From contig NZ_CP032551.1 of the NCBI RefSeq assembly GCF_009734345.1, positions 420,001 through 452,000 on the forward strand: a stretch of 32,000 nt of DNA, read 5' to 3'. Below, piece by piece: positions 5,184 through 32,000 of this stretch. The position numbers and the translations under genes are program-made. Below the pieces are notes generated by a model. The model was not told the DNA's origin, did no database searches, and saw only the letters and a program-made list of their open reading frames with translations. Numbering within the stretch: position 1 is the stretch's first letter; each line of letters begins with the position of its first letter. Source of the stretch: Pseudidiomarina andamanensis. Lineage in GTDB: Bacteria; Pseudomonadota; Gammaproteobacteria; Enterobacterales; Alteromonadaceae.

Positions 5184-5912
5184 TCAAAAGCCTTTACTGA
5201 TACTTATTACATGATTTTCTTGATTCAGCACGCGCCAACGAATATTCACGTTGTATAGCGTCATGCCGTATTCGCGGTCAGCGTCGTCGTGTTGTTGATA
5301 CGCGGGGCGAGGATCTTGTGCTAGCACCTGCGTTATGAGTGCCTGTAATTCCGGATAGTGAGGCATCAACTGTTGCAATTCTTCTCGTGCTTGATCACTA
5401 AAAGTAGTCATCAAATTTTTCTCTGGCGCGGTTGGTGCAAATCCGCCAGTAGCCGCTTGTATAGCATCGGCGTAGGGCACGTAAGGCTTGATATCAATCA
5501 CCGGTGTGTGATTTACCCAATCTGCACCTTGCACCTCAATAATGGTTTGTTTGTCTTGATGTTTGATATCGATAATTTGAACTACCGACATACCAATATT
5601 GTTTGGGCGGAACGTCGAGCGGGTGGCGAACACGCCGCGTTTCTCATTGCCACCAAGGCGCGGAGGGCGTACCAGAGGTTTCCAGCCCTGAGCTGTGGTT
5701 TGGTGAAATAAAAATAAAACCCAAATATGGGAGAACTCTTTTAGGCCGCGAACGCAATCAGGATGTCCATAGTCACCTTGCAACACGATGCGGGCTCTTG
5801 CCGCAGGTACGAGCCCAGGTTGTCGTGGTACGGCAAACTTCTCCGGGTAGGGTGATTCAATGAATCCTATCGGTTCAATGGTATGAGAAGTCATAATCGA
5901 ATGCTCGGACAT
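5184..5912 (-). CDS. trmO: tRNA (N6-threonylcarbamoyladenosine(37)-N6)-methyltransferase TrmO (YaeB/TsaA family)
   Basis: [20 protein letters not shown]...[12 protein letters not shown]...[28 protein letters not shown]...IDIKPYVPY matches E. coli YaeB. Adjacency to proS is the same as in E. coli. Confidence 0.9.
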
Positions 5913-6130
5913 GGTTCGTGTATCTGGTCGAATTAAATTTGTGTTATTTGAGCATAATTTTGTGATTTTGACTAATTTATGATGAGAATCTCAGCATGGA
6001 ATATTGAGTAACGTCTTGAAATTAAAGGGGTAAATAATTGGCATGATAATTGCTTTATAAACTTCGAGTGAATTTTTTACGTCCTATGAAGACGATGATG
6101 ACAACATTAATAATTACGGAGACAACAACA

Positions 6131-6778
6131 ATGAACCGTCAACGCACCACTTGGAGTATTGCTTTAGGAATGATCGCTGGTATTACCGTGATCAGCTTGC
6201 CATTTACAGCTTCTGCGCAACAACACGAAAAGCACATCGCTGCTGAATACACCGTAACCAATGCAACGGAAGTTAGTTTTGACTCTGGCGTAGGAACCAT
6301 TACGTTTGAGCGCACTGAAGGCGATGTGATGGAAGTATCTATTCGTGCCTATAAAGATGATGACACTGTTTTTGACAAAGAAGGTAATGTTGAAGACGCT
6401 GAGCTTATTGCTGAGCAAGCAGGTGATCAATTAACACTTCGTGTGCCAAAGCAAGACGGTATTCAATTGGATTGGGTTGTTAAACTACCGAAAGTTAGCC
6501 GCGTTGAGACCGATCTTGGTGTGGGTGAAATTAGTGGGAATTTGTGGACCACGAACATCAACATTGACCTGGGTGTTGGTGAAGTTGATTTAGATATTTA
6601 CGGCGACTATAAAACAATTAAAACGGATATTGGTGTTGGTGATAGCACAATTAGAGGGTTAGGCAATATTGAAAATAATCGCTTTTTAATGACAGCGAAT
6701 AGCCGAGCTAATTCTGACGGAAAACATCGAGTCAGTGTGGATGCTGGTGTGGGTGATGTGAATATTACCGTTCATTAA
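6131..6778 (+). CDS. secreted DUF4097-like repeat protein (putative beta-helical/adhesin-like)
   Basis: The ATG at 6131 is preceded by GGAG and gives a signal peptide (MNRQRTTWSIALGMIAGITVISLPFTASA). There are five D/x-x-GVG-[DET] repeats (DSGVGTI, DLGVGEI, DLGVGEV, DIGVGDS, DAGVGDV). The listed start at 6050 is an in-frame extension with no SD. Confidence 0.7.
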   Translation: MNRQRTTWSIALGMIAGITVISLPFTASAQQHEKHIAAEYTVTNATEVSFDSGVGTITFERTEGDVMEVSIRAYKDDDTVFDKEGNVEDAELIAEQAGDQLTLRVPKQDGIQLDWVVKLPKVSRVETDLGVGEISGNLWTTNINIDLGVGEVDLDIYGDYKTIKTDIGVGDSTIRGLGNIENNRFLMTANSRANSDGKHRVSVDAGVGDVNITVH

Positions 6779-6824: not shown

Positions 6825-7226
6825 TTAAATGAGAAAGTCTTCTAAAGATTTACCGGAATCGACAGCTGCTTTTAATGCTTTAGGCATGCGACCTTGTCCG
6901 GTCCAAGTTACGCGGTTACCATCGTTATCGGTAATTTCGTATTTTGGTGGTTTTGGCGTACGTTTGGTTTTTACTTTTGCTGTGACTGAAGGCTCACCAA
7001 CTAATTCGGCTAAATCAATTCCAGCTTCATCAATAAAGCGTTTTACTTCTTCGATTTTTCGCTGTTTTTCTACTTCAAGCTTTTTAAGCTCGGCCTCTTC
7101 TTCTTTCCGCTCTTCAATAACTTTATTTAATTTTTCGCGTACTTCTTCTAGTTCAGTGACAGATAGTTCCTTTACTGCTGCCTTTAAACGTCGTCCATGG
7201 TTTAAGATTTTTAAAAACTCGCTCAT
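6825..7226 (-). CDS. hns: H-NS family nucleoid-associated DNA-binding protein
   Basis: 133 aa. N-terminal coiled coil rich in E/K. The C-terminal TWTGQGRMPK motif is the H-NS DNA-binding signature. A very AT-rich 117-bp region lies upstream. Confidence 0.9.
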   Translation of the reverse strand: MSEFLKILNHGRRLKAAVKELSVTELEEVREKLNKVIEERKEEEAELKKLEVEKQRKIEEVKRFIDEAGIDLAELVGEPSVTAKVKTKRTPKPPKYEITDNDGNRVTWTGQGRMPKALKAAVDSGKSLEDFLI

Positions 7227-7343
7227 AGTTAGTCCAAATTATTAACAATGTGTGTAATTAATTTAATACGAAGTTTATTAAGACGACAATCTTAAAAATT
7301 TGTCTTAAATATCTTACACACAAAGTTAATTTAATTAAATGAA

Positions 7344-19680: not shown

Positions 19681-20106
19681 CTACTCCTGATTTGCTACTG
19701 CAGAACTTGTTGTCGATTGATCTGCTCCAATTTCAGCAAGTTCATCGCGACAACGATCTTCTAAGTTGGTGAGCTCTACTAAAAGAACCTTAATATCTTC
19801 AAGTTGTTGCTTGAGTGACATTTTCTTGTCATCAATCAACGCTAAAACGGTATGCAGCTGACGTGCGCTGCTATTTTCCATGTCATACAAGTCAAACAAA
19901 TTTTTGGTTTCTGCCAACGAGAACCCAAGCCGTTTACCCCGTAAAATAAGCTTCAAACGTACACGATCTTTATTCGTATAAAGCCGTGTTTGCCCCTGTC
20001 GCTTGGGCGATAGTAGGCCTTGGTCTTCGTAAAACCGGATGCTACGAGTGGTAATGTCGAATTCGCGGGCTAATTCGCCGATGCTGTAGATGGTTGTTGC
20101 GTTCAT
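19681..20106 (-). CDS. liuR: MerR-family transcriptional regulator of leucine/isovalerate catabolism
   Basis: 141 aa. MerR HTH ([26 protein letters not shown]) plus a coiled-coil dimerisation helix. First gene of the liu array. Confidence 0.88.
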
Positions 20107-20150
20107 TTTTGCTTGCTTGTCATGGTTGAGAGCGTTAAGCTTAAAACAAG

Positions 20151-20166
20151 TTGACGTTAACGTAAA
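20151..20166. promoter_or_regulatory. Candidate LiuR (MerR-type) operator, overlapping a putative liuR promoter
   Basis: Imperfect 16-bp palindrome TTGACGTTAACGTAAA, 45 nt upstream of the liuR ATG. On the minus strand TTTACG (-35-like, 20161-20166) is followed 17 nt later by TAAGCT (-10-like, 20138-20143). The assignment to LiuR is inferred from position and family habit. Confidence 0.55.
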
Positions 20167-20180
20167 GGTAAGAAAAGCCG

Positions 20181-20350
20181 AAAAGCGTTATTCGTTATTC
20201 GTTATTCGTTATTCGTTACTGGTTATTCGTTCGCTCAGCTCGCTCAATGGTTATTTCGTATAAAATCGGAAGTAGCGCGATGCGATAGTTTGAAAGCTAG
20301 ACGTCATTGTATTCTCGAATAACGAATAACGAATAACGAATAACGTTTTT
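20181..20350. repeat. Heptamer-armed palindromic element, copy 1 (6 left units / 4 right units, 86-bp core)
   Basis: Left side: AAAAGCG (20181-20187), then TTATTCG x4, TTACTGG, TTATTCG (20188-20229). Core: 20230-20315. Right side: CGAATAA x4 (20316-20343), then CGTTTTT. Confidence 0.9.
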
Positions 20351-20370
20351 GGGTCTTCAAGGGAGTATTT

Positions 20371-21549
20371 ATGTCTGATGCAGTAGTGATTGTTGCCGCC
20401 AAACGCACCCCAATGGGTGGCTTTCAAGGCAGTTTGACCGAAGTGAGCGCCCCCAATTTAGGCGCCATCGCCATCAAAGCAGCGCTTGCAGAGAGCGGGT
20501 TGCGTGGCGACGACGTGCAGGAAGTCATTATGGGCAACGTGTTGCCGGCCGGTTTAGGGCAGGCGCCTGCGCGTCAGGCAACATTGTATGCAGGGCTACC
20601 GCGCAGTGCTGGCGCGACAACCATTAATAAAGTGTGCGGTTCTGGCTTGAAAGCGGTGATGTTCGCGCATGATTTAATTCATGTTGGTTCGGCCGATGTG
20701 GTGGTAGCTGGTGGCATGGAAAGCATGTCGAATGCGCCTTATTTGCTGAAAAAAGCGCGCGCAGGTTTCCGCATGGGCCACGATGCCATTTATGATCACA
20801 TGATGTTGGATGGTCTTGAAGATGCTTACGAAGGCAAGGCTATGGGCTGTTATGCACAGAGCACTGCTGATGACTATGGTCTTGGTCGTGAAGCGATGGA
20901 TAACTTTGCTTTGGCTTCATTAAGCCGCGCTCAAACAGCAATTAAAGACGGTTTGTTCAAAGATGAAATTGTGCCGGTCACCTACAGCACGCGTAAGGGC
21001 GATGTTACCGTTGAAATTGATGAGCAACCAGGCAAAGCCATGCCGGATAAAATTCCAGGTTTACGCCCAGCGTTTGCCAAAGATGGCACGATTACGGCAG
21101 CGAACTCGAGCTCAATTTCAGACGGTGCTGCCGCATTGGTATTGATGCGTGAAAGCGAAGCGAAAGCGCGAGGCTTAAAACCGTTAGCACGTGTTGTCGG
21201 GCATGCGACGCACTCACAAGCGCCAGCTGAATTTACCGTGGCGCCAATTGGTGCGATGAACAAATTGCTCGATAAGGTTCAATGGAATAAAGACGACGTT
21301 GACTTGTGGGAAATTAACGAAGCCTTCGCGATGGTGACCATGCTCGCTATGCAGCAAATGGATATTGACCATGACAAAGTGAATGTTCATGGCGGCGCTT
21401 GCGCACTTGGTCACCCAATTGGTGCCAGCGGCGCACGTTTGCTCGTTACGTTGCTGCACGCGCTGAAACAGCGCGGCAAGCAACGTGGTATTACGTCGCT
21501 TTGTATTGGTGGCGGCGAAGCCGTAGCTGTCGCTGTTGAAATGATCTAG
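20371..21549 (+). CDS. acetyl-CoA C-acetyltransferase (thiolase II; likely the 2-methylacetoacetyl-CoA/acetoacetyl-CoA thiolase of BCAA catabolism)
   Basis: 392 aa. Active-site Cys (NKVCGSGLKAV), plus GGACALGHPIGASGAR and LCIGGGEAVAV. SD GGGAG lies before the ATG. Confidence 0.92.
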   Translation: MSDAVVIVAAKRTPMGGFQGSLTEVSAPNLGAIAIKAALAESGLRGDDVQEVIMGNVLPAGLGQAPARQATLYAGLPRSAGATTINKVCGSGLKAVMFAHDLIHVGSADVVVAGGMESMSNAPYLLKKARAGFRMGHDAIYDHMMLDGLEDAYEGKAMGCYAQSTADDYGLGREAMDNFALASLSRAQTAIKDGLFKDEIVPVTYSTRKGDVTVEIDEQPGKAMPDKIPGLRPAFAKDGTITAANSSSISDGAAALVLMRESEAKARGLKPLARVVGHATHSQAPAEFTVAPIGAMNKLLDKVQWNKDDVDLWEINEAFAMVTMLAMQQMDIDHDKVNVHGGACALGHPIGASGARLLVTLLHALKQRGKQRGITSLCIGGGEAVAVAVEMI

Positions 21550-22394
21550 CTTGATCGTTTTGACGCGAGCCATACTGAGCTAATCAGAATGGCACCGCCG
21601 AGGGCAAGCCGTGGCCAGTCTACGGCTTGACCCCAAAACGCATAGTTAATCAGCAAGCCCGCTGGAATAAGCATATTATTCATGGTGGCAAGTTGGGCAA
21701 CGTTAACGCGCTTCGCACCAAGGTTCCATGCCAGATAACCAAGGCCGGATGCGCCGAGACCAAGCCACAGTAAAATACCCCATTCTAGCTGGGTTGTTGG
21801 TACTTTAGAGAAATCGGCAAAGAGTGCCATCGCAATACCAGATGCAGCGGTGGCGCCAATGAAGAATAGGGCGAAGGCGTGTACTTGATTACGAGCATCA
21901 CCAAGTTCGAGTCGTTTATAAAAGACTTGCCCAGCCGCGAAACATAGGTTGGCTGCTTGAATCAATAAGAAGCCAATGACAAATGAATCGCTAAGTGTTT
22001 CAAAGCGGATGACGGCGGCACCAATGACGGCGACAACCGCTGCAAGCCACCAACGAGCCGGTAAATGTCGACGTTGGAAAATCACGTCGTCGATAAGCGT
22101 CACATAAAGTGGCGTAAAAATCGTAAATAAAAGTACTTCAGGAACGGATAGATAAAGAAATGCGTGGTAGAGGAAAAGATACATCACGCCAATTTGAATG
22201 GCACCAATAACGGCGAGCTGCCATTGCTGTCGAAAAGCAAGACGAGCAGGGCGCCAAAGCGGTAAAAACAAAGCAAGCGCAAGGATCATGCGGATAAATA
22301 CGGCAATATAACCGTCGACATGGCCGGCAAGAAACTCCCCGATGAGTGAAAAGCTTGCAGCCCATAGTGCGGTCACAGCCCAAAGTATCCACAT
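21546..22394 (-). CDS. EamA/DMT-family transporter
   Basis: 282 aa, about 10 predicted TM helices, two-EamA-repeat architecture. Sits 15 nt downstream of the AraC-family gene on the same strand. Confidence 0.8.
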   Translation of the reverse strand: MWILWAVTALWAASFSLIGEFLAGHVDGYIAVFIRMILALALFLPLWRPARLAFRQQWQLAVIGAIQIGVMYLFLYHAFLYLSVPEVLLFTIFTPLYVTLIDDVIFQRRHLPARWWLAAVVAVIGAAVIRFETLSDSFVIGFLLIQAANLCFAAGQVFYKRLELGDARNQVHAFALFFIGATAASGIAMALFADFSKVPTTQLEWGILLWLGLGASGLGYLAWNLGAKRVNVAQLATMNNMLIPAGLLINYAFWGQAVDWPRLALGGAILISSVWLASKRSS

Positions 22395-22409
22395 AGTTAT
22401 TTTCCTTTT

Positions 22410-23297
22410 TTAATTTGCGCTTTTGGTTGCAGAACTTTCGCGATAGTACTGCGGTGATATACCCATCGTTTTCTTAAACAGTCGCGAAAAATAATACGGG
22501 TCATCGAAACCGAGTTGTTGACTGATTTGACGAATTGAATCGGTTGAAGCATCTAACAACTGACAGGCTATTTTAACCCGAATTTGATTAAAGTAACGCA
22601 TCGGGCTAGTACCAGTGAATTGTTTGAATTTTTTGCTGAAATGAAAGCGCGATAACCCAGCAAAATCAGCAAAATCGTCTAGGCTTAAGTCGCGATGCGA
22701 GTTGTCGTACATAAAGCGTTCGAGTGCCGGTAAATCAAAGCCTTGTGGCGCCTGCATGGTTGCCGTTAAGCGCGGTAATTCAGCAATAATTCGCTGCAGT
22801 AAACTGGCGGCGACCACCGCCGCGGCAAACTGATGACGTTGGGTTTGCAAATTGAGTAGGTCGGTAACCACTGGAATAAGTTGTCGCCAGCGAGCTAGCG
22901 TTAATACCGGTTGCTGGTCGGTTAATTCAAGAAATTCAGGGCATGCCGCTGCTGCGGAACCTTGAAAGTGTGCCCAGTAAATGCTCCAGGGCTGTTCGGC
23001 GTGCGCTGCATAAGCGTGAGCCTGCCCAGCTGGTAATAGCAATAATTGTCCAGCACGGAGCGTGCCGCTGGCCGTCTCGGTTCGATACCAGCCGCTACCG
23101 CGATGGCAAAATATGAGTAGGTAATCGGTGTGTTGCTGGCGTTCTACTTGGTGCCCTTGGGCATCGACATAATGTCCGTATGCAAGCGGATATAAATGTT
23201 TCGTCAGTGGATGGCGAGCTAGTTGTCGGGTCAATTGTAATGGCAAAACAACGCGTGAACTTCCCGTTGGAAGTGGCCACGATGAAGGTTGGCTCAT
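22410..23297 (-). CDS. AraC-family transcriptional regulator (MmsR-like, divergent from mmsA)
   Basis: C-terminal AraC HTH (SLDDFADFAGLSRFHFSKKFKQFTGTSPMRYFNQIRVKIACQLL...GFDDPYYFSRLFKK) and an N-terminal cupin-like domain. The ATG at 23297 (MSQPSS...) has GGAG 6 nt upstream. The listed start at 23375 is a TTG with no SD and is probably an over-extension. Confidence 0.8.
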   Translation of the reverse strand: MSQPSSWPLPTGSSRVVLPLQLTRQLARHPLTKHLYPLAYGHYVDAQGHQVERQQHTDYLLIFCHRGSGWYRTETASGTLRAGQLLLLPAGQAHAYAAHAEQPWSIYWAHFQGSAAAACPEFLELTDQQPVLTLARWRQLIPVVTDLLNLQTQRHQFAAAVVAASLLQRIIAELPRLTATMQAPQGFDLPALERFMYDNSHRDLSLDDFADFAGLSRFHFSKKFKQFTGTSPMRYFNQIRVKIACQLLDASTDSIRQISQQLGFDDPYYFSRLFKKTMGISPQYYRESSATKSAN

Positions 23298-23325
23298 GGA
23301 AGGCTCCGAGATCGCAATTTTGTCC

Positions 23326-23331
23326 ATTATA
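23326..23331 (-). promoter_or_regulatory. Candidate -10 box (TATAAT) for the AraC-family gene
   Basis: A perfect TATAAT on the minus strand, about 29 nt upstream of the preferred ATG at 23297. A weak -35 (TTTAAC) sits 17 nt upstream. Sequence-only prediction. Confidence 0.3.
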
Positions 23332-23387
23332 GGGGCAAAATCGTCGATGTTAAAGGACTTCGAAAACAACGACAATGAATGAACGGC

Positions 23388-23571
23388 AAAAGCGTTAGTC
23401 GTTATTCGTTATTGGTTATTCGTGAGCGTTGTTTGCTCGTTAACTCTGTATCGAGGTTTGAGCGCTTTTCGATGTGTGAATTTTTGAACCATTTTTGATT
23501 GGTTTTTGTCTTTTTCGAATAACGAATAACGAATAACCAATAACGAATAACGAATAACGAGTAACGAATTC
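23388..23571. repeat. Heptamer-armed palindromic element, copy 2 (4 left / 8 right units, 93-bp core)
   Basis: Left side: AAAAGCG (23388-23394), then TTAGTCG TTATTCG TTATTGG TTATTCG (23395-23422). Right side: CGAATAA x3, CCAATAA, CGAATAA x2, CGAGTAA, CGAATTC (23516-23571). Confidence 0.9.
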
Positions 23572-23589
23572 AATAAAGAGGTTATACAG

Positions 23590-25089
23590 ATGAGCAAGAA
23601 AGTTCCTTTATTTATCGACGGCGAATTCGTGCAGTCGAACACCAGTAACTGGATTGACGTGACCAACCCAGCCACGCAAGAAGTGATTGCACAAGCACCT
23701 TGCGCGACACAAGACGAGATGAAAAAAGCGGTTGAGAGCGCGAAAAAAGCGTTTTTGACTTGGAAAGAAGTGCCAGTTTCTGAGCGTGCGCGTGTGATGA
23801 TGCGTTATCAAGCGTTGCTGAAAGAGCACCATGATGAAATTGCTGAGATTCTTGCCAGCGAAACCGGCAAAACCTTTGATGATGCGAAAGGCGACGTATG
23901 GCGTGGTATCGAAGTAGTTGAGCATGCAGCGAACATTCCATCATTGCTGATGGGTGAAACGGTTGAGAACGTTGCGCGCGGCATTGACAGCTACAGCTAC
24001 ACACAGCCACTTGGTGTTTGTGCGGGTATTACACCATTTAACTTCCCTGCGATGATTCCACTTTGGATGTTCCCACTGGCGATTGCCTGCGGTAACACAT
24101 TCATTTTGAAACCATCTGAGCAAGATCCATTAACGCCAACGCGTTTGGTTGAGTTGTTCGAGCAAGCAGGCGCTCCAAAAGGCGTGTTGCAAGTTATTCA
24201 CGGCGGTAAAGAGCAGGTTGACTTCTTATTAGACGAACCTGCCGTACGCGCGATTTCGTTTGTTGGTTCAGTGGCTGTAGGTCAATACATCTATCGCCGC
24301 GGTACTGAAAACATGAAACGCGTTCAAGCATTTGCTGGTGCGAAAAACCACTGCGTGATCATGCCTGATGCCAACAAATCACAAGTGATTAGCAACCTGG
24401 TTGGTGCTTCGGTAGGTGCTGCGGGTCAGCGTTGTATGGCGATTTCTGTTGCGGTATTCGTTGGTGCGGCACGTGAGTGGATTCCGGAAGTTGCTGCTGA
24501 ACTTGCGAAAGTGAAGCCAGGCGCGTGGAACGATAAAGATGCAGCTTACGGTCCAGTGATCAGTCCGCAAGCGAAGCAGCGCGTTGAGAACTTTATTGCG
24601 CAAGGCCAAAAAGAAGGTGCTGAGCTGTTAGTTGATGGTCGCAACTGTAAAGTTGAAGGTTTCCCGAACGGTAACTGGGTTGGTCCAACTATGTTTGGTA
24701 AAGTGACCACCGACATGGAAATCTACAAGAATGAGATTTTCGGTCCAGTATTGTGCGCCACTGAAGTTGAAACACTCGATGACGCATTAGCCATGGTCAA
24801 TGCGAACCCATACGGCAACGGTACGTCAATCTTTACGGCAAGCGGTGCAGCGGCGCGTAAATATCAGCACAACGTTGAAGTTGGTCAAGTGGGTATCAAC
24901 ATTCCAATTCCGGTACCACTGCCGTTCTTCTCATTCACCGGCTGGAAAGGGTCATTCTTTGGTGACTTGCATGCTTATGGTAAGCAAGCGGTGCGCTTCT
25001 ACAGTGAAACCAAAACCATTACAGCTCGTTGGTTTGAAAGCGATATCGCTGATGCCAATGGTCCAAATATGACGATTCATTTGAAGTAA
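23590..25089 (+). CDS. mmsA: methylmalonate-semialdehyde dehydrogenase (CoA-acylating)
   Basis: 499 aa aldehyde dehydrogenase with catalytic Cys in [10 protein letters not shown]-terminus [12 protein letters not shown] is typical of MMSDH. SD AGAGG. Confidence 0.93.
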
Positions 25090-25101
25090 TAGGACGTTGT
25101 C

Positions 25102-26259
25102 ATGAACTTTAATTTAACTGACGACCAACAAGCTTTTGTCGATACGGCAAAAGCTTTTGCTGAGAAAGAACTTGCGCCATTTGCTGCGCAGTGGGATGAA
25201 GAATCACACTTCCCAGTTGAAGTATTCCGTAAAGCCGGTGAAATGGGCTTTATGGGTATGTACACCCCAGAAGACGCCGGCGGCTTCGGCATGAGTCGAT
25301 TAGACGCGGCGTTGATTTTTGAACAATTATCGATGGGTTGTACCGCCACCACCGCCATGATGACCATTCACAACATGGTAACTTGGATGATTGGCTCGTT
25401 CGCGAAACCAGATGTGATTGAACAGTGGGTTCCAGAATTAGTGACGGGTGAGAAGTTAGGTTCTTATTGTTTGACTGAACCTGGTGCTGGGTCTGATGCG
25501 GCAAGCTTGCGAACCACTGCGAAAAAAGATGGCGATGAGTACGTGTTAAACGGCTCGAAAATGTTCATCTCAGGTGCCGGTAGTACCGACGTACTCGTTG
25601 TTATGGCGCGCACTGGTGAAGCTGGGCCGAAAGGTATTTCTGCATTTGTCGTACCAGCTGATGCAGCTGGTATTAGCTACGGCAAAAAAGAAGCGAAGAT
25701 GGGCTGGAATGCTCAGCCAACTCGTTTGGTTACTTTTGAAGATGTTCGTATTCCGGCTGATAATTTGCTTGGCGAAGAAGGCGAAGGCTTTAAGTTTGCC
25801 ATGATGGGACTAGACGGCGGCCGTATTAATATCGCGGTATGCTCAGTCGGCACTGCGCAAGCAGCGTTAGAAACAGCAACCAACTACATGCACGAACGCA
25901 CGCAGTTCGGTAAAGAGCTAGGCCACTTCCAAGCGTTGCAGTTTAAGCTAGCTGATATGGCTACCGAGCTTGTTGCTGCGCGTCAGATGGTTCGCTTGGC
26001 GGCATTCAAAGTTGATAGCAACGATCCAGATAAAACCACCTATTGCGCGATGGCAAAACGTTTTGCCACCGACGTTGGCTTCCAAGTGTGTAACGAAGCG
26101 CTGCAAATTCACGGCGGTTACGGTTACATCAAGGAATACCCGCTTGAACGTCATGTGCGCGATGTACGCGTGCATCAAATTCTTGAGGGCACCAACGAAA
26201 TTATGCGGGTGATTATCGCACGCCGCCTACTCGCCGATATGGACCGAGCCATCCTTTAA
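25102..26259 (+). CDS. acyl-CoA dehydrogenase (probable isobutyryl-/2-methylbutyryl-CoA dehydrogenase)
   Basis: 385 aa ACAD family (CLTEPGAGSDAASL...ILEGTNEIMRVIIARRLL). Substrate is inferred only from its position after mmsA. Confidence 0.85.
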   Translation: MNFNLTDDQQAFVDTAKAFAEKELAPFAAQWDEESHFPVEVFRKAGEMGFMGMYTPEDAGGFGMSRLDAALIFEQLSMGCTATTAMMTIHNMVTWMIGSFAKPDVIEQWVPELVTGEKLGSYCLTEPGAGSDAASLRTTAKKDGDEYVLNGSKMFISGAGSTDVLVVMARTGEAGPKGISAFVVPADAAGISYGKKEAKMGWNAQPTRLVTFEDVRIPADNLLGEEGEGFKFAMMGLDGGRINIAVCSVGTAQAALETATNYMHERTQFGKELGHFQALQFKLADMATELVAARQMVRLAAFKVDSNDPDKTTYCAMAKRFATDVGFQVCNEALQIHGGYGYIKEYPLERHVRDVRVHQILEGTNEIMRVIIARRLLADMDRAIL

Positions 26260-26291
26260 GGGTGGCTTTTCTGTCTTAAAAGGAGGTCATT

Positions 26292-27416
26292 ATGGATCCA
26301 GTAGTATTGTTCGACGAGCTTGAAGCAAGTAACGGCAAACGCATTGGTATCATCACCCTAAACTCAGAAAAATCATTGAACGCGTTAAGCTTACCTATGA
26401 TTCAGCTGTTGCAACCACAGCTGCAGCAATGGGCAAACGATGACGCTATTGCCTGCGTATTTATGCAAGGGGCGGGTGAGAAAGCTTTCTGCGCTGGTGG
26501 CGATATTGTGGCCATGTACAAAGCCATGCAAGCGAAGCCAGGCGTGTTGGTTGATGAGGTTGCTGACTTTTTTAGCCAAGAATACCGACTTGATTACGCC
26601 ATTCACACCTTCCCAAAGCCGCTTGTGCTTTGGGGGCACGGCATTGTGATGGGCGGTGGTATGGGCCTCATGAACGGTGCCAGCCATCGTATTGTGACTG
26701 AGCGCTCGTTGTTGGCTATGCCGGAAGTGACGATTGGTTTGTACCCTGATGTTGGCGCGACCCACTTTTTGAATCAAATGCCTGAGGGCTGTGGCCTATT
26801 CTTAGGGCTCACTGGCGCGCACATGAACGCGACAGATGCGCTGTATTTGAAACTGGCGGATCATTTTGTGGCAAGCACCAGTAAAGACGACGTACTCGCA
26901 GGCTTGAAAGACGTGAAGTGGGGCGATACCGCTGCATTGAATCACCAAAAAGTGACTGATGTTCTCAATGGCATTGGCATGCGCGATAGCAATCAGCGTC
27001 CTGCTGGACAAGTGGAAGCCCACCAGCAATTGATTAAAAAGTTGACGCAAGGTGCTGACATCGAAGCCGTTGTTAATGCAATTGTGAATGATACGACCGA
27101 TGACAAATGGCTAGCTCGCGCCCGTCAAACCCTGGCGGCAGGTTGTCCAATGACTGCTCATATTGTGTGGAATCAATTACAACACGGCGCTGATTTGAGT
27201 TTAGCTGACTGCTTCCGTCTTGAATTAACCTTATCGGTTCAATGTGCGATGCGCGGCGATTTCGCAGAGGGTATTCGCGCGCTGTTAATTGATAAGGATA
27301 AGCAGCCGAAGTGGCAGCATGGTTCGGTTGGTGAGGTTTCGGCTGAAGAGGTTGATGGCTTTTTCACGTCGCCATGGGCGGCAGCTGATCACCCACTCGC
27401 AACTTTAGGTAAGTGA
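26292..27416 (+). CDS. 3-hydroxyisobutyryl-CoA hydrolase (long crotonase-family enzyme)
   Basis: 374 aa. GAGEKAFCAGGDIV and AMPEVTIGLYPDVGATHFL motifs, with the C-terminal extension typical of HIBCH rather than a 260-aa hydratase. Strong SD AAGGAGG. Confidence 0.82.
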   Translation: MDPVVLFDELEASNGKRIGIITLNSEKSLNALSLPMIQLLQPQLQQWANDDAIACVFMQGAGEKAFCAGGDIVAMYKAMQAKPGVLVDEVADFFSQEYRLDYAIHTFPKPLVLWGHGIVMGGGMGLMNGASHRIVTERSLLAMPEVTIGLYPDVGATHFLNQMPEGCGLFLGLTGAHMNATDALYLKLADHFVASTSKDDVLAGLKDVKWGDTAALNHQKVTDVLNGIGMRDSNQRPAGQVEAHQQLIKKLTQGADIEAVVNAIVNDTTDDKWLARARQTLAAGCPMTAHIVWNQLQHGADLSLADCFRLELTLSVQCAMRGDFAEGIRALLIDKDKQPKWQHGSVGEVSAEEVDGFFTSPWAAADHPLATLGK

Positions 27417-27418
27417 TA

Positions 27419-27576
27419 AAAAGCGTTGTTCGTTATTCGTGCGTTCGCTTTGCTCACTGTTCGTACGTGCTTCGCACTGTTCGAATAGCGCAGCGGACGA
27501 ATAATGAACAACGAATAACGAACAACGAATAACGAACAACGAATAACGAACAACGAATAACGAGCAACGAATAACG
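27419..27576. repeat. Heptamer-armed palindromic element, copy 3 (2 left / 11 right units, 58-bp core)
   Basis: Left side: AAAAGCG (27419-27425), then TTGTTCG TTATTCG (27426-27439). Right arm at 27498-27574 alternates CGAATAA/CGAACAA (14-nt superperiod), then CGAGG supplies the mmsB SD. Confidence 0.9.
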
Positions 27577-27584
27577 AGGTTCTT

Positions 27585-28478
27585 ATGGCGAATGTTGGAT
27601 TTATTGGGCTTGGCAATATGGGCGGCCCGATGGCTGCAAACCTTTTCAAAGGCGGCCATCAGGTTAAAGTTTTTGATTTAGCAGAAGTAGCATTGCAGGC
27701 AGCGAAAGACGCCGGTTGCAGCGTGGCCGGCTCGGCCAATGAAGCGGCGCAAGGCGTTGATTTCGTGATTACCATGTTACCTGCAGATAAACACGTTGAG
27801 AGTGTTTACTTGGGTGATAATGGCTTGATTCACGAATTACCAAGCAGCACACTCGTGATTGACTGCAGTACGATTAGCGCAGAAACAGCACGTAAGGTTG
27901 GTCAAGCATTAGCAGCGGAAGGTATTTCGTTTATTGATGCACCAGTTTCTGGTGGTGTTGGTGGCGCGAAGGCCGGTACGCTGACCTTTATCTGTGGTGG
28001 TGATACAACCGCAGTTGATCGTGCGCGCGATGTATTGCAACACATGGGCAAAAACATCTTCCGTGCCGGTGATACAGGCGCTGGTCAAGTTGCGAAAATC
28101 TGCAACAATATGTTGCTGTCGGTGTTAATGATTGGTACTTCGGAAGCGTTGCAGTTGGGCATTGCTCATGGTCTTGATCCGAAAGTGCTGTCGGAGATTA
28201 TGTCGAAGAGTTCCGGTAGCAACTGGACTTTAGATGTATATAATCCTTGCCCTGGTGTGATGGATAATGTGCCTTCAAGCAACGGCTACCAAGGTGGCTT
28301 TTTAGTTGACTTGATGAGTAAAGACCTTGGCCTGGCACAGCAAGCGGCGTTAGCTAGCGGTGCGGCGACCCCAATGGGTGGTTTAACTCACAACTTGTAT
28401 CGCAGTTGGTCACAGCTTGGACACGGTCGTGAAGACTTCTCCAGTATCTTTAATTTCGTTAAAGCGAATAAAAAATAA
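27585..28478 (+). CDS. mmsB: 3-hydroxyisobutyrate dehydrogenase
   Basis: 297 aa. NAD-binding VGFIGLGNMGGPMAANL. Family core (DAPVSGGVGGAKAGTLTFICGG, GAGQVAKICNNM). Confidence 0.92.
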   Translation: MANVGFIGLGNMGGPMAANLFKGGHQVKVFDLAEVALQAAKDAGCSVAGSANEAAQGVDFVITMLPADKHVESVYLGDNGLIHELPSSTLVIDCSTISAETARKVGQALAAEGISFIDAPVSGGVGGAKAGTLTFICGGDTTAVDRARDVLQHMGKNIFRAGDTGAGQVAKICNNMLLSVLMIGTSEALQLGIAHGLDPKVLSEIMSKSSGSNWTLDVYNPCPGVMDNVPSSNGYQGGFLVDLMSKDLGLAQQAALASGAATPMGGLTHNLYRSWSQLGHGREDFSSIFNFVKANKK

Positions 28479-28492
28479 CCGATAACGAACGG
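28465..28492. repeat. Degenerate solo right arm of the heptamer element (about 4 units)
   Basis: CGAATAA AAAATAA CCGATAA CGAACGG spans the mmsB stop (TAA 28476-28478) and runs into the SD-like GGGG before the SDR ATG at 28500. No left arm is present. Confidence 0.4.
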
Positions 28493-28499
28493 GGAAATT

Positions 28500-29264
28500 A
28501 TGAAAATTGCTGAAAGTACCATTGTTATTACCGGTGGCGCCCAAGGTTTGGGCCGCGCGATGGCTGAACATTTTGCCGCAGAAGGCGCGCAATTGGCGCT
28601 GATTGATATGAATGCCGACACGCTGACTGAAGCTGAAGGTATTTGTACGGCTAAAGGTGCCAAGAAGGTTAAAGGCTACGTTGTGAACGTAACCGACGAA
28701 GCAGCTGTTGAGCAGGTATTTAATGACATCGTAGCAGACTTTGGCGCGGTGAACGTGTTGATTAATAACGCGGGTATTTTGCGCGACGGTATGTTGATTA
28801 AGTGCAAAGACGGTGAGATTACTCACAAAATGCCGTTACAACAGTTCCAATCAGTATTGGATGTTAACTTAACCGGTAGCTTTTTATGTGGCCGCGAGGC
28901 ATCGGCTCATATGGCAAAAGCTGGCAACGGCGGCGTTATCATTAATATTTCAAGTGTTGCTCGTGCCGGTAATATTGGCCAGACCAACTATGCGGCAACG
29001 AAAGCCGGCGTGGTTGCGATGACGGTCACATGGGCACGTGAGCTAGGTCGCTTTGGTATTCGTTGTGGTGCCATTGCACCAGGATTTATCGAAACGCCAA
29101 TGACTGCACAAATGAAGCCTGAGGCAGTTGAACGTGCATTGAGCATGGTGCCGTTACGCCGTTGGGGGCAGCCAGAAGAGATAGCCCACAGTGCGCGTTA
29201 TATTATTGAGAATGACTTCTTTAGCGGACGTGTGATAGAAATAGACGGTGGCGTTCGACTATAA
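28500..29264 (+). CDS. SDR-family oxidoreductase (FabG-like; possibly 3-hydroxy-2-methylbutyryl-CoA/3-hydroxyacyl-CoA dehydrogenase)
   Basis: 254 aa. TGGAQGLG cofactor motif and YAATKAG catalytic Y-x3-K. The insertion (KCKDGEITHKMPLQQFQSVLDVNLTGSF) and C-terminus (IIENDFFSGRVIEIDGG) resemble type-2 hydroxyacyl-CoA dehydrogenases. Substrate is inferred. Confidence 0.75.
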   Translation: MKIAESTIVITGGAQGLGRAMAEHFAAEGAQLALIDMNADTLTEAEGICTAKGAKKVKGYVVNVTDEAAVEQVFNDIVADFGAVNVLINNAGILRDGMLIKCKDGEITHKMPLQQFQSVLDVNLTGSFLCGREASAHMAKAGNGGVIINISSVARAGNIGQTNYAATKAGVVAMTVTWARELGRFGIRCGAIAPGFIETPMTAQMKPEAVERALSMVPLRRWGQPEEIAHSARYIIENDFFSGRVIEIDGGVRL

Positions 29265-29273
29265 CGAGTACTG

Positions 29274-30173
29274 ATGCGTAAATTACCCCCATTAAATGCC
29301 TTAAAAGCGTTTGAAGCTGCTGCCCGACACCTGAGTTTTACTAGGGCAGCTGATGAATTGTTTGTTACCCAAGCAGCGGTAAGTCACCAAGTAAAAGCGC
29401 TTGAGGAATTTTTGGGGGTTCAATTATTTTTACGCCGCAATCGGTCACTGTTACTTACCCCAGAAGGTCAATCCTATTATCTTGAACTAAAAGAAATTTT
29501 CGATCACATTGTTCAAGCGACTGAAAAGGTGAAATTTGCCAGTCAGCGTGGCTCGCTAACCATTTCATTACCGCCAAGTTTTGCCATTTTATGGTTCGTG
29601 CCGCGCTTAAGCCGGTTTCGTGAAGCTTATCCGGATATCGATGTCCGCATTCGTGCCGTTGATGAAGTGGACGGTTCATTAACTGATGACGTTGACGTTG
29701 CTATTTATTACGGCGCGGGTAAGTGGCCAGGTTTAAAAGCTTATAAATTACACAATGAATACCTGATTCCGGTGTGTTCTCCATTACTATTAAATGGCAC
29801 CAAACCACTGCGTGAACCACGTGATTTGTTGAATCATACGTTACTGCACGACGAAACTCGCAATGCTTGGAAAGACTGGTTTAAGCTGGTTGGTATAGAT
29901 AAAGACAAGGGCGACAACGGGCCAATTTTTAGTCATTCCAATTTAGCACTGAAAGCAGCCGTGCACGGGCAGGGCATTGCGTTAGCTAATAATGTATTGG
30001 TCAAGCCAGAAATTGATGCAGGACATTTAATTCAAATATTCCCTGATGCCTTACCACGGCAGAAATCTTTTTATCTTGTTTGTCGTGACTCTCAGTCAGA
30101 AGTCGGTAAAATCGCCACCTTCCGAAATTGGCTACTGCAAGTGGTCGAAGAAGAAGAGGATAGTTATGAGTGA
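29274..30173 (+). CDS. gcvA: LysR-family glycine cleavage system transcriptional activator
   Basis: Collinear with E. coli GcvA along its full length (LPPLNALKAFEAAARHLSFTRAADELFVTQAAVSHQVKALEEFLG...RRNRSLLLTPEGQSYYL...PIFSHSNLALKAAVHGQGIALANNV...FYLVCRDSQSEVGKIATFRNWLL). Lies close to rlmM, as in E. coli. Confidence 0.9.
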   Translation: MRKLPPLNALKAFEAAARHLSFTRAADELFVTQAAVSHQVKALEEFLGVQLFLRRNRSLLLTPEGQSYYLELKEIFDHIVQATEKVKFASQRGSLTISLPPSFAILWFVPRLSRFREAYPDIDVRIRAVDEVDGSLTDDVDVAIYYGAGKWPGLKAYKLHNEYLIPVCSPLLLNGTKPLREPRDLLNHTLLHDETRNAWKDWFKLVGIDKDKGDNGPIFSHSNLALKAAVHGQGIALANNVLVKPEIDAGHLIQIFPDALPRQKSFYLVCRDSQSEVGKIATFRNWLLQVVEEEEDSYE

Positions 30174-30801
30174 TAACCAGCGTGTTGCGATTCATCGCGA
30201 TAACGCCGATGGTCAATATCGAGTGATTTTTGCGCACGGCGCCGGTGCTGGGTTACAAAGCGATTTTATGCAATATATCGCGCTGGCATTAGCACTGAAC
30301 GATATTGAAGTGGTTCGCTTTAACTTTCCTTATTGGCAAAAATTTATGGATTCAGGTGTACGTCGACCACCGAATCGAATGTCTGAGCTGGAGCATTGCA
30401 TGCGCACCGTGGCAAGCCAGTTTAATGACGACAAACCATTGTTTTTAATGGGGAAGTCAATGGGCTCTCGCGTTGCGTTTCGACTTGCCGATGAGCTGAA
30501 TTCAAGAGCCGCCATTGCCTTGGGTTTTCCATTTCACCCAGTTGGCAAACCTGAAAAATTGCGACTGGATGACTTAAATAATCACCGCGAACAGAATCTG
30601 ATTATTCAAGGTACACGAGATAACTTTGGCAAGCCTGAGCAGGTGCGCAGTTATCCGTTGCCTGCAAATGTTGCGGTAAAATGGATTGAGGGTGGTGATC
30701 ACAGTCTTGAACCAACGAAGCGCAGTGGCTATACGCGCGAGCAATTGTGGCAAGCGGCAGTAAACGAAGTAACGAAACTAATAAAAAGCGTTGATCGTTA
30801 G
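30166..30801 (+). CDS. alpha/beta-fold hydrolase (COG3571-like small hydrolase)
   Basis: The ATG at 30166 (MSDNQRVAIH...) overlaps the gcvA stop by 8 nt. HGAGAG motif and nucleophile elbow GKSMGS. The listed start at 30046 would lie inside gcvA. Confidence 0.75.
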   Translation: MSDNQRVAIHRDNADGQYRVIFAHGAGAGLQSDFMQYIALALALNDIEVVRFNFPYWQKFMDSGVRRPPNRMSELEHCMRTVASQFNDDKPLFLMGKSMGSRVAFRLADELNSRAAIALGFPFHPVGKPEKLRLDDLNNHREQNLIIQGTRDNFGKPEQVRSYPLPANVAVKWIEGGDHSLEPTKRSGYTREQLWQAAVNEVTKLIKSVDR

Positions 30802-30902
30802 TCGTTATTGGTTATTCGAAACAGATAAAAGTAAGTCATTAGGTTTGAATCTTTGCTCTACGAATAACCAATAACGAAATTCGAATAACGAATAACGCTT
30901 TT
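30784..30902. repeat. Heptamer-armed palindromic element, copy 4 (4 left / 5 right units, 42-bp core)
   Basis: Left side: AAAAGCG (30784-30790), then TTGATCG TTAGTCG TTATTGG TTATTCG (30791-30818). Right side: CGAATAA CCAATAA CGAAATT CGAATAA CGAATAA (30861-30895), then CGCTTTT (30896-30902). Confidence 0.9.
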
Positions 30903-30917
30903 ACCAAGGGGTTATGA

Positions 30918-32000
30918 ATGACCGGAATTGTGGCCTATTGTCGGCCCGGATTTGAAAATGATTGTGCCGCAGAGCTGCAAGATAAAACCGCAGTACTAGG
31001 CATCTATGGCTATTGCCAAACAAAGCCGCAGCAAGGCTTTGTGGTTTATCGCTGTCAATCGGAAGAAGCAGAGCATTTAGCGAAAAAGTTAATTCTTCGA
31101 GAGTTAATTTTCACGCGCCAGTTCATTGTGATTTTGGCTCATGTCACCGAGCTGCCACAAGAAGATCGGGTAAGTGCGGTGCAAGTGGCGCTGCTTGATG
31201 AGGACGTACAAGAGGCTTTCGCTGGTGTGAAGCCGTGTGGCGATATTCGTGTGGAAACACCCGATACCAATGATGGTAAAGAGCTGTCAAAATTTTGTCG
31301 TAAATTCACTGTGCCACTGCGTCAGGGACTACGTAAAATTGATTGGTTAACGGTGAAAGAAAGCGACCGTCGACCAACGTTGCATGCGTTCTTTTTAAGT
31401 AATCAGGAAGTATATATTGGTTTTTCTTATTCGTTTAACCAATCACCTTGGTTGATGGGTATTCCACGCTTACGTTCGCCAAGTGATGCGCCAAGTCGTT
31501 CAACATTAAAGCTCGACGAAGCGTTTCAAGTGTTTGTGCCAGAGCACGAGCGTGAAGAACGTATCACCTCAGGCATGAACGCCGTTGATCTTGGTGCGGC
31601 GCCTGGTGGTTGGACGTATCAGTTAGTGCGTCGTGGCATGATGGTGCAAGCTGTTGATAATGGTCCAATGGCGCAAAGCTTAATGGATACGGGCCAAGTA
31701 AAACATATTCGCGAAGATGGCTTTAAGTATCGCCCGAAGAAAAAAAACGTGACGTGGTTGGTCTGCGATATGGTTGAGAAACCTGCGCGTGTTGGTGAGC
31801 TGATGACGAGTTGGTTGATTGATGGTGACTGCAAAGAAGCGATTTTCAACTTGAAACTACCAATGAAGCGACGCTATGCCGCAGTGGCAGAATACCTTGA
31901 ACAGATTAAGCAAACGTTAGTTGAACAAGGTCGTGGCCGGTTTGAATTGCAAGCGAAACAGCTTTATCACGATCGCGAAGAGATTACTGTGCATATACGC
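30918..32000 (+). CDS. rlmM: 23S rRNA (cytidine2498-2'-O)-methyltransferase RlmM, 3'-truncated by the window edge
   Basis: Not in the ORF track because no stop is reached. My translation from the ATG at 30918 (SD AAGGGG) is open for 361 codons. It reads MTGIVAYCRPGFENDCAAEL...DLGAAPGGWTYQLVRRGMMVQAVDNGPMAQSLMDTGQVKHIREDGFKYRP...WLVCDMVEKPARV...IFNLKLPMKRRY...LYHDREEITVHIR, closely matching E. coli RlmM (YgdE). Confidence 0.9.
   Translation, partial: MTGIVAYCRPGFENDCAAELQDKTAVLGIYGYCQTKPQQGFVVYRCQSEEAEHLAKKLILRELIFTRQFIVILAHVTELPQEDRVSAVQVALLDEDVQEAFAGVKPCGDIRVETPDTNDGKELSKFCRKFTVPLRQGLRKIDWLTVKESDRRPTLHAFFLSNQEVYIGFSYSFNQSPWLMGIPRLRSPSDAPSRSTLKLDEAFQVFVPEHEREERITSGMNAVDLGAAPGGWTYQLVRRGMMVQAVDNGPMAQSLMDTGQVKHIREDGFKYRPKKKNVTWLVCDMVEKPARVGELMTSWLIDGDCKEAIFNLKLPMKRRYAAVAEYLEQIKQTLVEQGRGRFELQAKQLYHDREEITVHIR

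Follow-up and report, generated by a model that had tools for sequence, protein, structure and literature searches.

What are the long palindromes with heptanucleotide arms that recur along a branched-chain catabolic gene cluster of Pseudidiomarina andamanensis, and do they belong to one family? We addressed this question in a window of 32,000 nt (NZ_CP032551.1, 420,001 to 452,000; positions are counted from the window start unless a contig is named). Reading of the sequence from 20000 to 31200 identified four palindromes, each built as AAAAGCG-(TTATTCG-like)n-core-(CGAATAA-like)m and located at 20181-20350, 23388-23571, 27419-27576, and 30784-30902 (copies 1, 2, 3, and 5). Our favored interpretation, to which we assign a probability of roughly 0.55, is that they are copies of a Pseudidiomarina (Idiomarinaceae) superfamily of hairpin-forming inverted heptamer arrays that may affect the mRNA of flanking genes. 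In the proposed build, a core of 40 to 90 nt would lie between inverted arrays of a general unit NTRTTNG, here TTATTCG in the left array and CGAATAA in the right; an outer clamp is often present, consisting of an A-run plus GCG before the left array and of CG(C) plus a T-run after the right one.

Copy 1 lies between liuR (− strand) and a thiolase gene (+ strand). Its clamp, AAAAGCG (20181-20187), is followed by a left arm at 20188-20229 (four TTATTCG units, TTACTGG, and TTATTCG), a core at 20230-20315, a right arm of four CGAATAA units at 20316-20343, and the closer CGTTTTT at 20344-20350. Copy 2, between an AraC-type regulator gene (−) and mmsA (+), has its clamp at 23388-23394, a left arm at 23395-23422 (TTAGTCG, TTATTCG, TTATTGG, and TTATTCG), a core at 23423-23515, and a right arm of seven units, including CCAATAA and CGAGTAA, at 23516-23564. 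Copy 3 is found within an operon, between the stop codon of the 3-hydroxyisobutyryl-CoA hydrolase gene (27414-27416; hyd below) and the start of mmsB (27585). Here the clamp (27419-27425) and a left arm of TTGTTCG and TTATTCG (27426-27439) lead into a core of the family that we call type A (27440-27497), and the right arm (27498-27574), 11 units with a 14-nt CGAATAA-CGAACAA higher-order repeat, continues directly into the mmsB ribosome-binding site, CGAGG. Copy 5, between an alpha/beta-hydrolase gene and rlmM, comprises a clamp (30784-30790), a left arm (30791-30818; TTGATCG, TTAGTCG, TTATTGG, and TTATTCG), a core (30819-30860), a right arm (30861-30895; CGAATAA, CCAATAA, CGAAATT, and CGAATAA twice), and the closer CGCTTTT (30896-30902). 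AAAAGCG precedes the left arm in 4 of 4 copies, and a run of four to five T's follows copies 1 and 5 only. The elements measure 119 to 184 nt in the window and 90 to 185 nt overall, with arms of 14 to 29% G+C and nonrepetitive cores of 40 to 90 nt.

A first-pass annotation made from this DNA alone had reported the same four palindromes, and sequence reading, Tandem Repeats Finder, shuffles, and folds all bear it out. Its description of the copies as intergenic needs correction for copy 5, which is not purely so: the hydrolase stop codon (30799-30801) falls inside the second unit of the left arm, and the open reading frame (ORF) reads through the clamp and first unit. In three orthologous contigs introduced below (L122 to L124) the hydrolase stop precedes the element, and copy 5 has changed the C terminus of the alpha/beta-hydrolase protein. 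A solo degenerate arm proposed at 28465-28492 (+) is doubtful as an element. It has 2 mismatches in 14 and is made up mostly of the last mmsB codons, the stop codon (ending at 28478), and a 21-nt spacer; the same C-terminal mmsB codons occur in L122 to L124 with no array there.

Period-7 arrays were called by Tandem Repeats Finder at 20186-20231, 20316-20345, 23393-23423, 23516-23569, 27497-27577, 30795-30818, and 30860-30897; by the same program, such arrays flank the core on both sides in all four copies, and the copy 3 right arm is a 14-nt repeat of 5.8 copies with 97% matches. Allowing up to 2 mismatches, we found 33 matches to the two-unit pattern CGAATAACGAATAA in the window, always within 20188-30895, compared with a mean of 0.36 and a maximum of 3 matches in dinucleotide shuffles. 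As the first-pass annotation had stated for the first 20 kb, no such array is present in 1-20100, where the intergenic gaps are ordinary terminators or AT-rich promoter regions. The arms are complementary over 38 nt in copy 1 (95%), 31 nt in copy 2 (97%, with TTATTGG pairing with CCAATAA), 17 nt in copy 3 (100%), and 33 nt in copy 5 (79%). Each copy folds into a predicted hairpin, with energies from −42.5 to −75.0 kcal/mol and z scores from −3.1 to −9.0 relative to dinucleotide shuffles: the predicted minimum free energies are −75.0 (z −9.0), −65.9 (z −6.1), −50.4 (z −3.1), and −42.5 kcal/mol (z −6.6) for copies 1, 2, 3, and 5, respectively. ORFs of 84 to 88 aa also run across copies 2 and 3 on the − strand (23409-23675 and 27389-27659); they are probably spurious, because (TTATTCG)n has no stop codon in any frame.

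To place these elements, we scanned one genome per species for (CGAATAA)3. The array was found in Pseudidiomarina gelatinasegens, P. taiwanensis, P. aestuarii, P. aquimaris, and P. donghaiensis, as well as in one Pseudidiomarina metagenome-assembled genome (MAG), one Idiomarina MAG, one gammaproteobacterial MAG, and many unrelated phyla. At four of these loci (L028, L058, L066, and L119) the arrays are part of full palindromes whose core resembles that of copy 3. An alignment of 10 copies gives the type-A consensus TTATTCG-TxCGTTCRCTWCGYTCACTGTTCG-TxCGYGCTTCGCRCTGTTCG-loop-CGAACAGYG...GCG-CGAATAA, and an nhmmer profile built from ten copies finds this core of about 50 nt in eight Idiomarinaceae genomes and MAGs, at no fewer than nine unlinked intergenic sites (E values of 1e-11 to 3e-25). 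The matches are in L028 (two sites), L058, L066, L119 (two sites), L122, L123 (two sites), L125, and copy 3 of the window; one of them, L028:7625-7720 (E = 2e-19), lies outside the set from which the profile was built. The flanking genes vary from site to site (symporter, glutaminase/tuf, rplM, hyd/mmsB, hydrolase/rlmM, and liuR/thiolase), and the type-A core has therefore been dispersed. Spread of this core to many unlinked intergenic sites, by whatever route, is one observed step of the mechanism that we propose. Among the loci compared, none outside Idiomarinaceae matched the type-A profile with an E value better than 0.7, and no type-A copy was present in the plasmid and phage collections. 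A metagenome scan with the core 15-mer GCTTCGCRCTGTTCG returned 120 stretches, all chance matches with no heptamer arms nearby, the pattern being too short for that collection.

The strain that carries the window also has copies beyond it. Two public short-read contigs come from this strain: L121 matches the window at 100% identity, and in L252 the permease gene is identical and the genes follow the same order. L252 reaches 3.4 kb farther left than the window and begins with CGAATAACGAATAACCAATAACGATTAACG beside the 3′ end of smr (L252 1-30), while L121 starts inside the right arm of copy 3 (L121 1-26). Heptamer arrays fragment short-read assemblies, and two contigs of the window strain end inside them. 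Further copies in the genome or in relatives, which the first-pass annotation had set out as a test of the family, thus exist both at smr, 3.4 kb outside the window, and in other Pseudidiomarina genomes.

We next compared the four gene junctions of the window with the 21-kb orthologous region of ten contigs (L122 to L131). In the window, the hyd-mmsB junction carries type A and the other three (liuR-thiolase, araC-mmsA, and hydrolase-rlmM) carry TTATTCG arms, each around a core of its own. L122 has a second type, B, at liuR-thiolase, araC-mmsA, and hyd-mmsB and type A at hydrolase-rlmM; L123 and L124 have type B at the first two junctions and type A at the last two. P. salilacus (L125) carries type A at liuR-thiolase, nothing at araC-mmsA, and empty hyd-mmsB and hydrolase-rlmM sites. 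In the taiwanensis-like pair L126 and L127 (states read in L126), the AraC gene is absent, with no element at the araC-mmsA position, and the other three junctions are empty; L128 is likewise empty at these three and has no element at araC-mmsA. L129 and L130 carry a third type, C, at liuR-thiolase, with nothing at araC-mmsA (L129) and empty sites at the remaining two junctions (in L130 judged by gene spacing), and P. halophila (L131) differs from this pattern only in having type B′ at liuR-thiolase. Empty hyd-mmsB and hydrolase-rlmM spacers are 10 to 30 nt long (L125, L126, L128, L129, and L131), and the operon genes around the copy 3 site are only 14 to 24 nt apart in relatives.

The sibling types follow the same plan as the window elements: an A-run plus (G)CG, T-rich NTRTTNG units, a core, and complementary units, closed in many cases by CG(C) plus a T-run. 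In type B, ATATTAG/CTAATAT arms surround the core CTGATGTxTCGxGCxTTTGTGTTT (L122 5232-5325, 8362-8460, and 12318-12405; also in L123 and L124), and type B′ has TTATTAG, ATATTAG, and TTATTGG units. Type C consists of three AAAAGCG units followed by TTGTTTG, CTATTCG, and CTGTTCG units and the core GTTTGTTTAAACCT (5218-5375 in L129 and L130), and it is also found at two other sites in P. aquimaris (L116 2345-2440 and 3600-3690). Type-B and type-C cores also recur at separate sites, and in all no fewer than three core types have each spread beyond a single site. Across genomes, the liuR-thiolase junction alone is filled by type A, B, B′, or C, and two genomes have no element there. L122 and L123 are 93 to 95% identical and yet differ at hyd-mmsB, with type B in the former and type A in the latter; window DNA is about 84% identical to L122 to L124. 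Gain, loss, and replacement at fixed gene junctions are thus rapid, and fast turnover, in which one junction can be empty or filled by type A or by its siblings (ATATTAG type B and CTGTTTG/AAAAGCG type C), is a further observed step of the proposed mechanism.

Such turnover invites comparison with miniature inverted-repeat transposable elements (MITEs). Under this alternative the elements would be nonautonomous transposons, cut and pasted or copied by an enzyme encoded elsewhere, with the heptamer arrays serving as multiple transposase-binding sites. The type-A core at unlinked sites in several species, orthologous sites occupied in one species but not in another, the reuse of the same sites by different subtypes, and the noncoding length of 90 to 185 nt all favor it, and bacterial MITEs such as Correia, ERIC, and RUP resemble the window elements in size, inverted ends, lack of coding capacity, intergenic position, and presence/absence polymorphism. 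However, MITEs have fixed terminal inverted repeats, target-site duplications, and an origin from insertion sequences, none of which was found here: at the junctions of about 20 copies, including a filled-versus-empty site comparison, there was no target-site duplication and no fixed terminus. The arms are inverted, but they differ freely in length and in the number and sequence of their units, and a single copy can have unequal arms (2 versus 11 units in copy 3). In agreement with the first-pass annotation, which had seen no transposase, integrase, or recombinase gene in the window, no transposase, integrase, or RAYT gene was found in the window or in the 21-kb orthologous loci, a search that covers about 35 kb of the window genome; the plasmid and phage collections also argue against a MITE. 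To our knowledge, named MITE families do not have microsatellite arms. We consider a classical MITE improbable, and the MITE-like reading suggested earlier is unproven.

In 236 kb of Idiomarinaceae DNA, a sample partly biased toward loci chosen for their arrays, we counted 23 arrays of period 7 and at most 1 for each other period from 4 to 11; in these data the lineage expands 7-base units only. The units TTATTCG, TTATTGG, TTATTAG, and ATATTAG form a chain of single substitutions and co-occur within single arrays. Variant units are mirrored between arms. TTATTGG is matched by CCAATAA in copies 2 and 5, as the first-pass annotation had noted for two right arms; at araC-mmsA in L122, CTATTGG is mirrored by CCAATAG, each the third unit of its arm, and at liuR-thiolase in the same contig CTACTAG is the third unit on the left and CTAGTAG the third on the right. 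Such mirroring would not come from independent slippage on the two sides and fits inverted duplication of an array or quasi-palindrome template switching, by either of which the arms may stay mirror images down to the order of their variants. Template switching is known to homogenize the arms of inverted repeats (PMC7202029, PMC5941160, and PMC8604942), in Escherichia coli and other proteobacteria according to the first two of these sources.

The arms are mirror-symmetric, and one-sided expansion is also ongoing. Left and right arms have 2 and 11 units in copy 3 and 4 and 7 in copy 2, and the two arms of an L119 element have 2 and 7; this inequality, together with the 14-nt repeat of copy 3, indicates that slippage on one side continues after a palindrome has formed. 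By analogy with published heptamer repeats, arms would grow and shrink by replication slippage of one or two units at a time, a step size suggested by the 14-nt repeat in the copy 3 right arm. Expansion also reaches other units, since AAAAGCG itself is expanded as a heptamer in L129 and L130, and GTAAAAA in L023. The L023 locus (4855-4969), upstream of an acetyl-CoA synthetase-like gene, has two different arrays back to back, (GTAAAAA/GTGAAAA/GGGAAAA)n and then (CGARYAA)n, of which the latter runs into the ribosome-binding site. We considered whether the right arm is kept as a three-frame stop device. This property holds for CGAATAA and CTAATAT, since 7 is not a multiple of 3, but the type-C right-arm units CGAACAG and CAAACAA are stop-free, and the idea was rejected.

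What would the elements do once in place? Most copies are preceded by a stop codon or a promoter region and followed by the next start codon, and for this reason they are probably transcribed with the flanking genes. In RNA, each would form a nearly perfect stem of 17 to 38 bp, in many cases with unpaired A-rich units after it, immediately 5′ of the ribosome-binding site. Judged by analogy, the elements would most likely influence how the flanking mRNA is processed or translated or how stable it is, and the number of units would serve as a mutable setting; a good many copies may be close to neutral. A scan of the + strand found no sigma-70-like promoter within any element.

An A-run, a long stem, and a T-run could also describe bidirectional intrinsic terminators or transcriptional insulators. 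Copies 1 and 5, with AAAAGCG at one end and CGTTTTT or CGCTTTT at the other, fit this description, several copies in relatives finish in CGCTTTT or CGTTTT, and those of L028 and L066 are placed between convergent genes. Copies 2 and 3, however, have no T-run, and cores of 40 to 90 nt far exceed the loops of terminators. Copy 3 sits inside an operon whose genes are 14 to 24 nt apart in relatives, and copy 1 separates the conserved LiuR-box region from the thiolase start, a position at which a terminator would shut the gene off. A consensus terminator scan reported none of the four elements, but it permits loops of 3 to 8 nt only and is blind to them. Termination or insulation as the primary role is, in our judgment, quite unlikely.

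The position of the copies raises the further idea that they are binding-site arrays for a regulator of branched-chain amino acid catabolism. All four window copies fall within a 10.7-kb stretch of a LiuR-associated branched-chain catabolic (liu/mms) cluster, upstream of the thiolase gene, mmsA, mmsB, and rlmM; the first three of these targets would suit such a regulator, but the fourth junction is hydrolase-rlmM. Copies elsewhere adjoin rplM, tuf, acs, murJ, smr, and a symporter gene, and sister species with the same operon have no elements or have different units. We give this idea almost no credence, and sites specific to one regulon are ruled out by the distribution of the copies.

The heptamer itself extends well beyond Idiomarinaceae. 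(CGAATAA)3 occurs in more than 120 stretches from Bacteroidota (Saprospiraceae and Kordia), cyanobacteria, Chloroflexota, Acidobacteriota, Deltaproteobacteria, and others, and among viral stretches (CGAATAA)3 occurs in 20 and (CTAATAT)3 in 39. A unit found in so many lineages and in viruses says nothing by itself about descent. The paired arrangement recurs as well: TTATTCG and CGAATAA lie within 250 nt of each other in that order at 17 of 120 loci, compared with 4 in the opposite order, and such pairs occur in at least nine other lineages, including Saprospiraceae, cyanobacteria, Anaerolineae, and Acidobacteria. Outside Idiomarinaceae, in Saprospiraceae, Oscillatoriales, Tychonema, Anaerolineaceae, and Pyrinomonadaceae (L006, L012, L019, L051, L059, L084, and L091), one likewise finds a left array, a loop, and a right array set between a stop codon and a start codon, with unrelated cores. 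One Saprospiraceae MAG holds two copies with common core ends, TGTGATAA...TTACCACA. Among 160 arrays from many phyla, the CGAAUAA-sense orientation within 80 nt upstream of a long ORF start outnumbers the opposite by 58 to 22, a count that comes from a crude ORF caller and from arrays that are not independent.

From these observations one could build a bolder account, in which heptamer-armed hairpins are a cross-phylum expression module under RNA-level selection, for example as a device for RNase III or ribosome standby, with unit number tuning its strength, or the product of a dedicated enzyme or mobile-element mechanism, rather than a by-product of slippage. Its basis would be the common build of stop codon, T-rich array, loop, A-rich array, and start codon in Pseudidiomarina, Saprospiraceae, filamentous cyanobacteria, Anaerolineae, Acidobacteria, and Deltaproteobacteria, along with the 17:4 bias in order and the 58:22 bias in sense. 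If true, a dedicated writing mechanism would explain the swaps of subtype at one site. We hold this account, in either form, to be rather improbable.

Several points weigh against the superfamily reading that we favor. Copies 1, 2, and 5 have cores that bear no relation to type A: in the window the type-A core occurs only in copy 3 (E = 5e-19), copy 1 reaches an E value of 0.76, and copies 2 and 5 give no score. A related box that the first-pass annotation saw at the start of three cores is accordingly weak, and it is the arms and clamp that place all four copies in one family. Part of the clamp may belong to the flank rather than the element, because the empty L128 site already reads "cgaaaac" where filled sites read "cgAAAA(G)CG." A consensus fold of eight type-A copies predicted 10 pairs with 1 compensatory change, the alignment being wrecked by modular insertions and deletions. 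Sense and antisense RNA folds are about equal (13 of 21 favor the stored strand, with a mean difference of −2 kcal/mol; gene orientation was checked for some loci only), and no G-U signature of RNA-level selection showed up in these 21 comparisons. No difference in array length separates the near-identical pairs L123/L124 (99.5%), L129/L130 (99.0%, substitutions only), and window/L121 (100%), and short arrays are therefore not hypermutable on that scale. Finally, transcription, cleavage, and an effect on expression are at this stage predictions for these elements.

The first two of these points would also suit an account without any family, in which each copy arose by local 7-base slippage and palindrome growth on a preexisting small hairpin, such as a bidirectional terminator, and the similarity is convergent. 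The three cores of copies 1, 2, and 5 also show no kinship among themselves, heptamers other than TTATTCG have been expanded in L129, L130, and L023, and both the unit and its inverted pairing turn up in distant lineages, the unit even in viruses. But a core of about 50 nt at at least nine unlinked sites, with E values down to 3e-25, cannot be convergent, the type-B and type-C cores recur in the same manner, and the empty hyd-mmsB and hydrolase-rlmM sites contain no starting hairpin. We therefore regard purely local origins as unlikely. The earlier argument for common descent over local slippage stands to the extent that the copy 3 core recurs elsewhere and that sites are filled or empty according to species; for descent of all four copies, the evidence is the arms and clamp. 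Taken as a whole, the comparison reveals a superfamily of noncoding, hairpin-forming inverted heptamer arrays that is specific to this lineage.

Are such elements new? The first-pass annotation called them undescribed, and the elements indeed have no Rfam match at the gathering threshold (in permissive mode, only subthreshold plant microRNA-hairpin noise, at best 34.7 bits versus 74 required). In the literature, no searchable paper contains the unit dimer, links Idiomarina to heptamers, or names the family, the 7-mer alone being uninformative as a query. The architecture, however, has a precedent in Xanthomonas, where about 185 intergenic GGGAATC arrays per genome include 70 to 75 in close convergent inverted pairs (Rehm et al. 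2015, PMC4692102). These pairs could form stem-loops or cruciforms, and their length and sequence vary widely between close species at the same gene pairs (PMC4692102). They differ in being G-rich, in having been studied as quadruplex formers, in lying nearer the upstream ORF, and in having no described core or clamp (PMC4692102); a comparison by eye, without alignment, noticed no sequence in common with the window elements. The family is thus apparently unnamed but not a categorically new element; its most fitting place is among the known intergenic heptamer arrays in inverted pairs, as a local form.

Tandem 7-nt arrays, a bias toward period 7, a mostly intergenic position, variation between relatives, and convergent inverted pairs are all features that the window elements share with heptanucleotide repeats. 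Tandem heptanucleotides of cyanobacteria are called STRR. As relayed by later papers, heptanucleotide repeats are the most overrepresented class, for which polymerase slippage has been proposed (Mrazek et al. 2007, via PMC4692102 and PMC4679880); like the window elements, they are described there as intergenic, patchy across phyla, and of favored period 7, but as plain tandem arrays, whereas the Pseudidiomarina elements are palindromes with conserved cores. In Beggiatoaceae, cyanobacteria, and Bacteroidetes, TAACTGA arrays of 2 to 43 copies mostly precede start codons by a few nucleotides, and a role in translation has been proposed for them (MacGregor 2015, PMC4679880). They resemble (CGAATAA)n in being AT-rich with in-frame stop triplets, in their proximity to start codons, and in a similarly patchy set of phyla, but nearly all are direct (1 inverted in 170 sets; PMC4679880), and most of the Pseudidiomarina elements consist of a core between inverted arrays. 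A Nostoc preprint reports that heptamer arrays near start codons affect expression.

For the possible action of the window elements, the best experimental model is the hmw hairpin of Haemophilus influenzae, in which (ATCTTTC)n is transcribed, forms an arm of a long hairpin in the 5′ untranslated region, and is cut by RNase III, with unit number setting expression (Rapun-Araiz et al. 2025, PMC12721329). The window elements share with hmw, in prediction only, a repeat that forms one arm of a long hairpin upstream of a start codon. The hmw case differs in being a single locus with a host-interaction phenotype and a right arm of G-rich nonrepetitive sequence; the Pseudidiomarina elements are a dispersed family. 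REP, BIME, and REPIN sequences are high-copy intergenic palindromes that are cotranscribed with their neighbors, affect mRNA stability or termination, and make no target duplication. The window elements are 119 to 184 nt long, with AT-rich arms, ends of AAAAGCG/TTATTCG, and no GTAG or CGTC tag, unlike REPs, which are 20 to 40 nt long, G+C-rich, tagged by GTAG or CGTC, and RAYT dependent (PMC3733652). In P. aquimaris (L116 2100-2205), a pair of REP-like GTAG hairpins (GGGTAGCCCGTGGTTCTACCACGGG and its complement) abuts a (CGAATAA)n array, and Pseudidiomarina may also have a classical REP/RAYT system.

The surrounding genes begin with a MerR-type regulator (LiuR-like; 19681-20106, −), followed by an acetyl-CoA acetyltransferase (thiolase, +), a DMT-family transporter (−), and the AraC-type regulator (−). 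Next come methylmalonate-semialdehyde dehydrogenase (mmsA, +), acyl-CoA dehydrogenase, 3-hydroxyisobutyryl-CoA hydrolase, and 3-hydroxyisobutyrate dehydrogenase (mmsB), and last a short-chain dehydrogenase, a GcvA-like LysR regulator, the alpha/beta-hydrolase, and rlmM, which owes its name to Pfam families found in its L122 ortholog. Judged by homologs of its acyl-CoA dehydrogenase, the window belongs to Pseudidiomarina. Just upstream of copy 1, in the gap that separates the thiolase gene from the MerR-type regulator gene, is a near-perfect palindrome, TTGACGTTAACGTAAA (20151-20166), that is kept in every orthologous locus examined and resembles the LiuR operator of the branched-chain catabolic regulon. 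Outside the cluster, an imperfect tandem repeat at 5934-5978 (period 21, 2.3 copies, consensus unit TAATTTTGTGATTTTGAC) occupies the 138-nt gap of the divergent genes 5184-5912 (−) and 6050-6778 (+) and possibly represents repeated operator sites. An H-NS-family gene (6825-7226, −), assigned by Pfam families from the L252 annotation, has a very AT-rich upstream region (7241-7330) with a 36-nt imperfect inverted repeat.

In practical terms, these repeats break short-read assemblies and create spurious ORFs on the stop-free strand. For biology, they add a clean and well-bounded example to the poorly understood phenomenon of bacterial heptamer repeats, in a genus with small genomes, with four junctions that can be compared in the empty, type A, type B, and type C states, and with one copy in a catabolic operon set against a ribosome-binding site. 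These features make two questions testable: whether such hairpins affect mRNA processing or translation, as in the hmw system of Haemophilus, and how mirror symmetry is kept while the arms expand.

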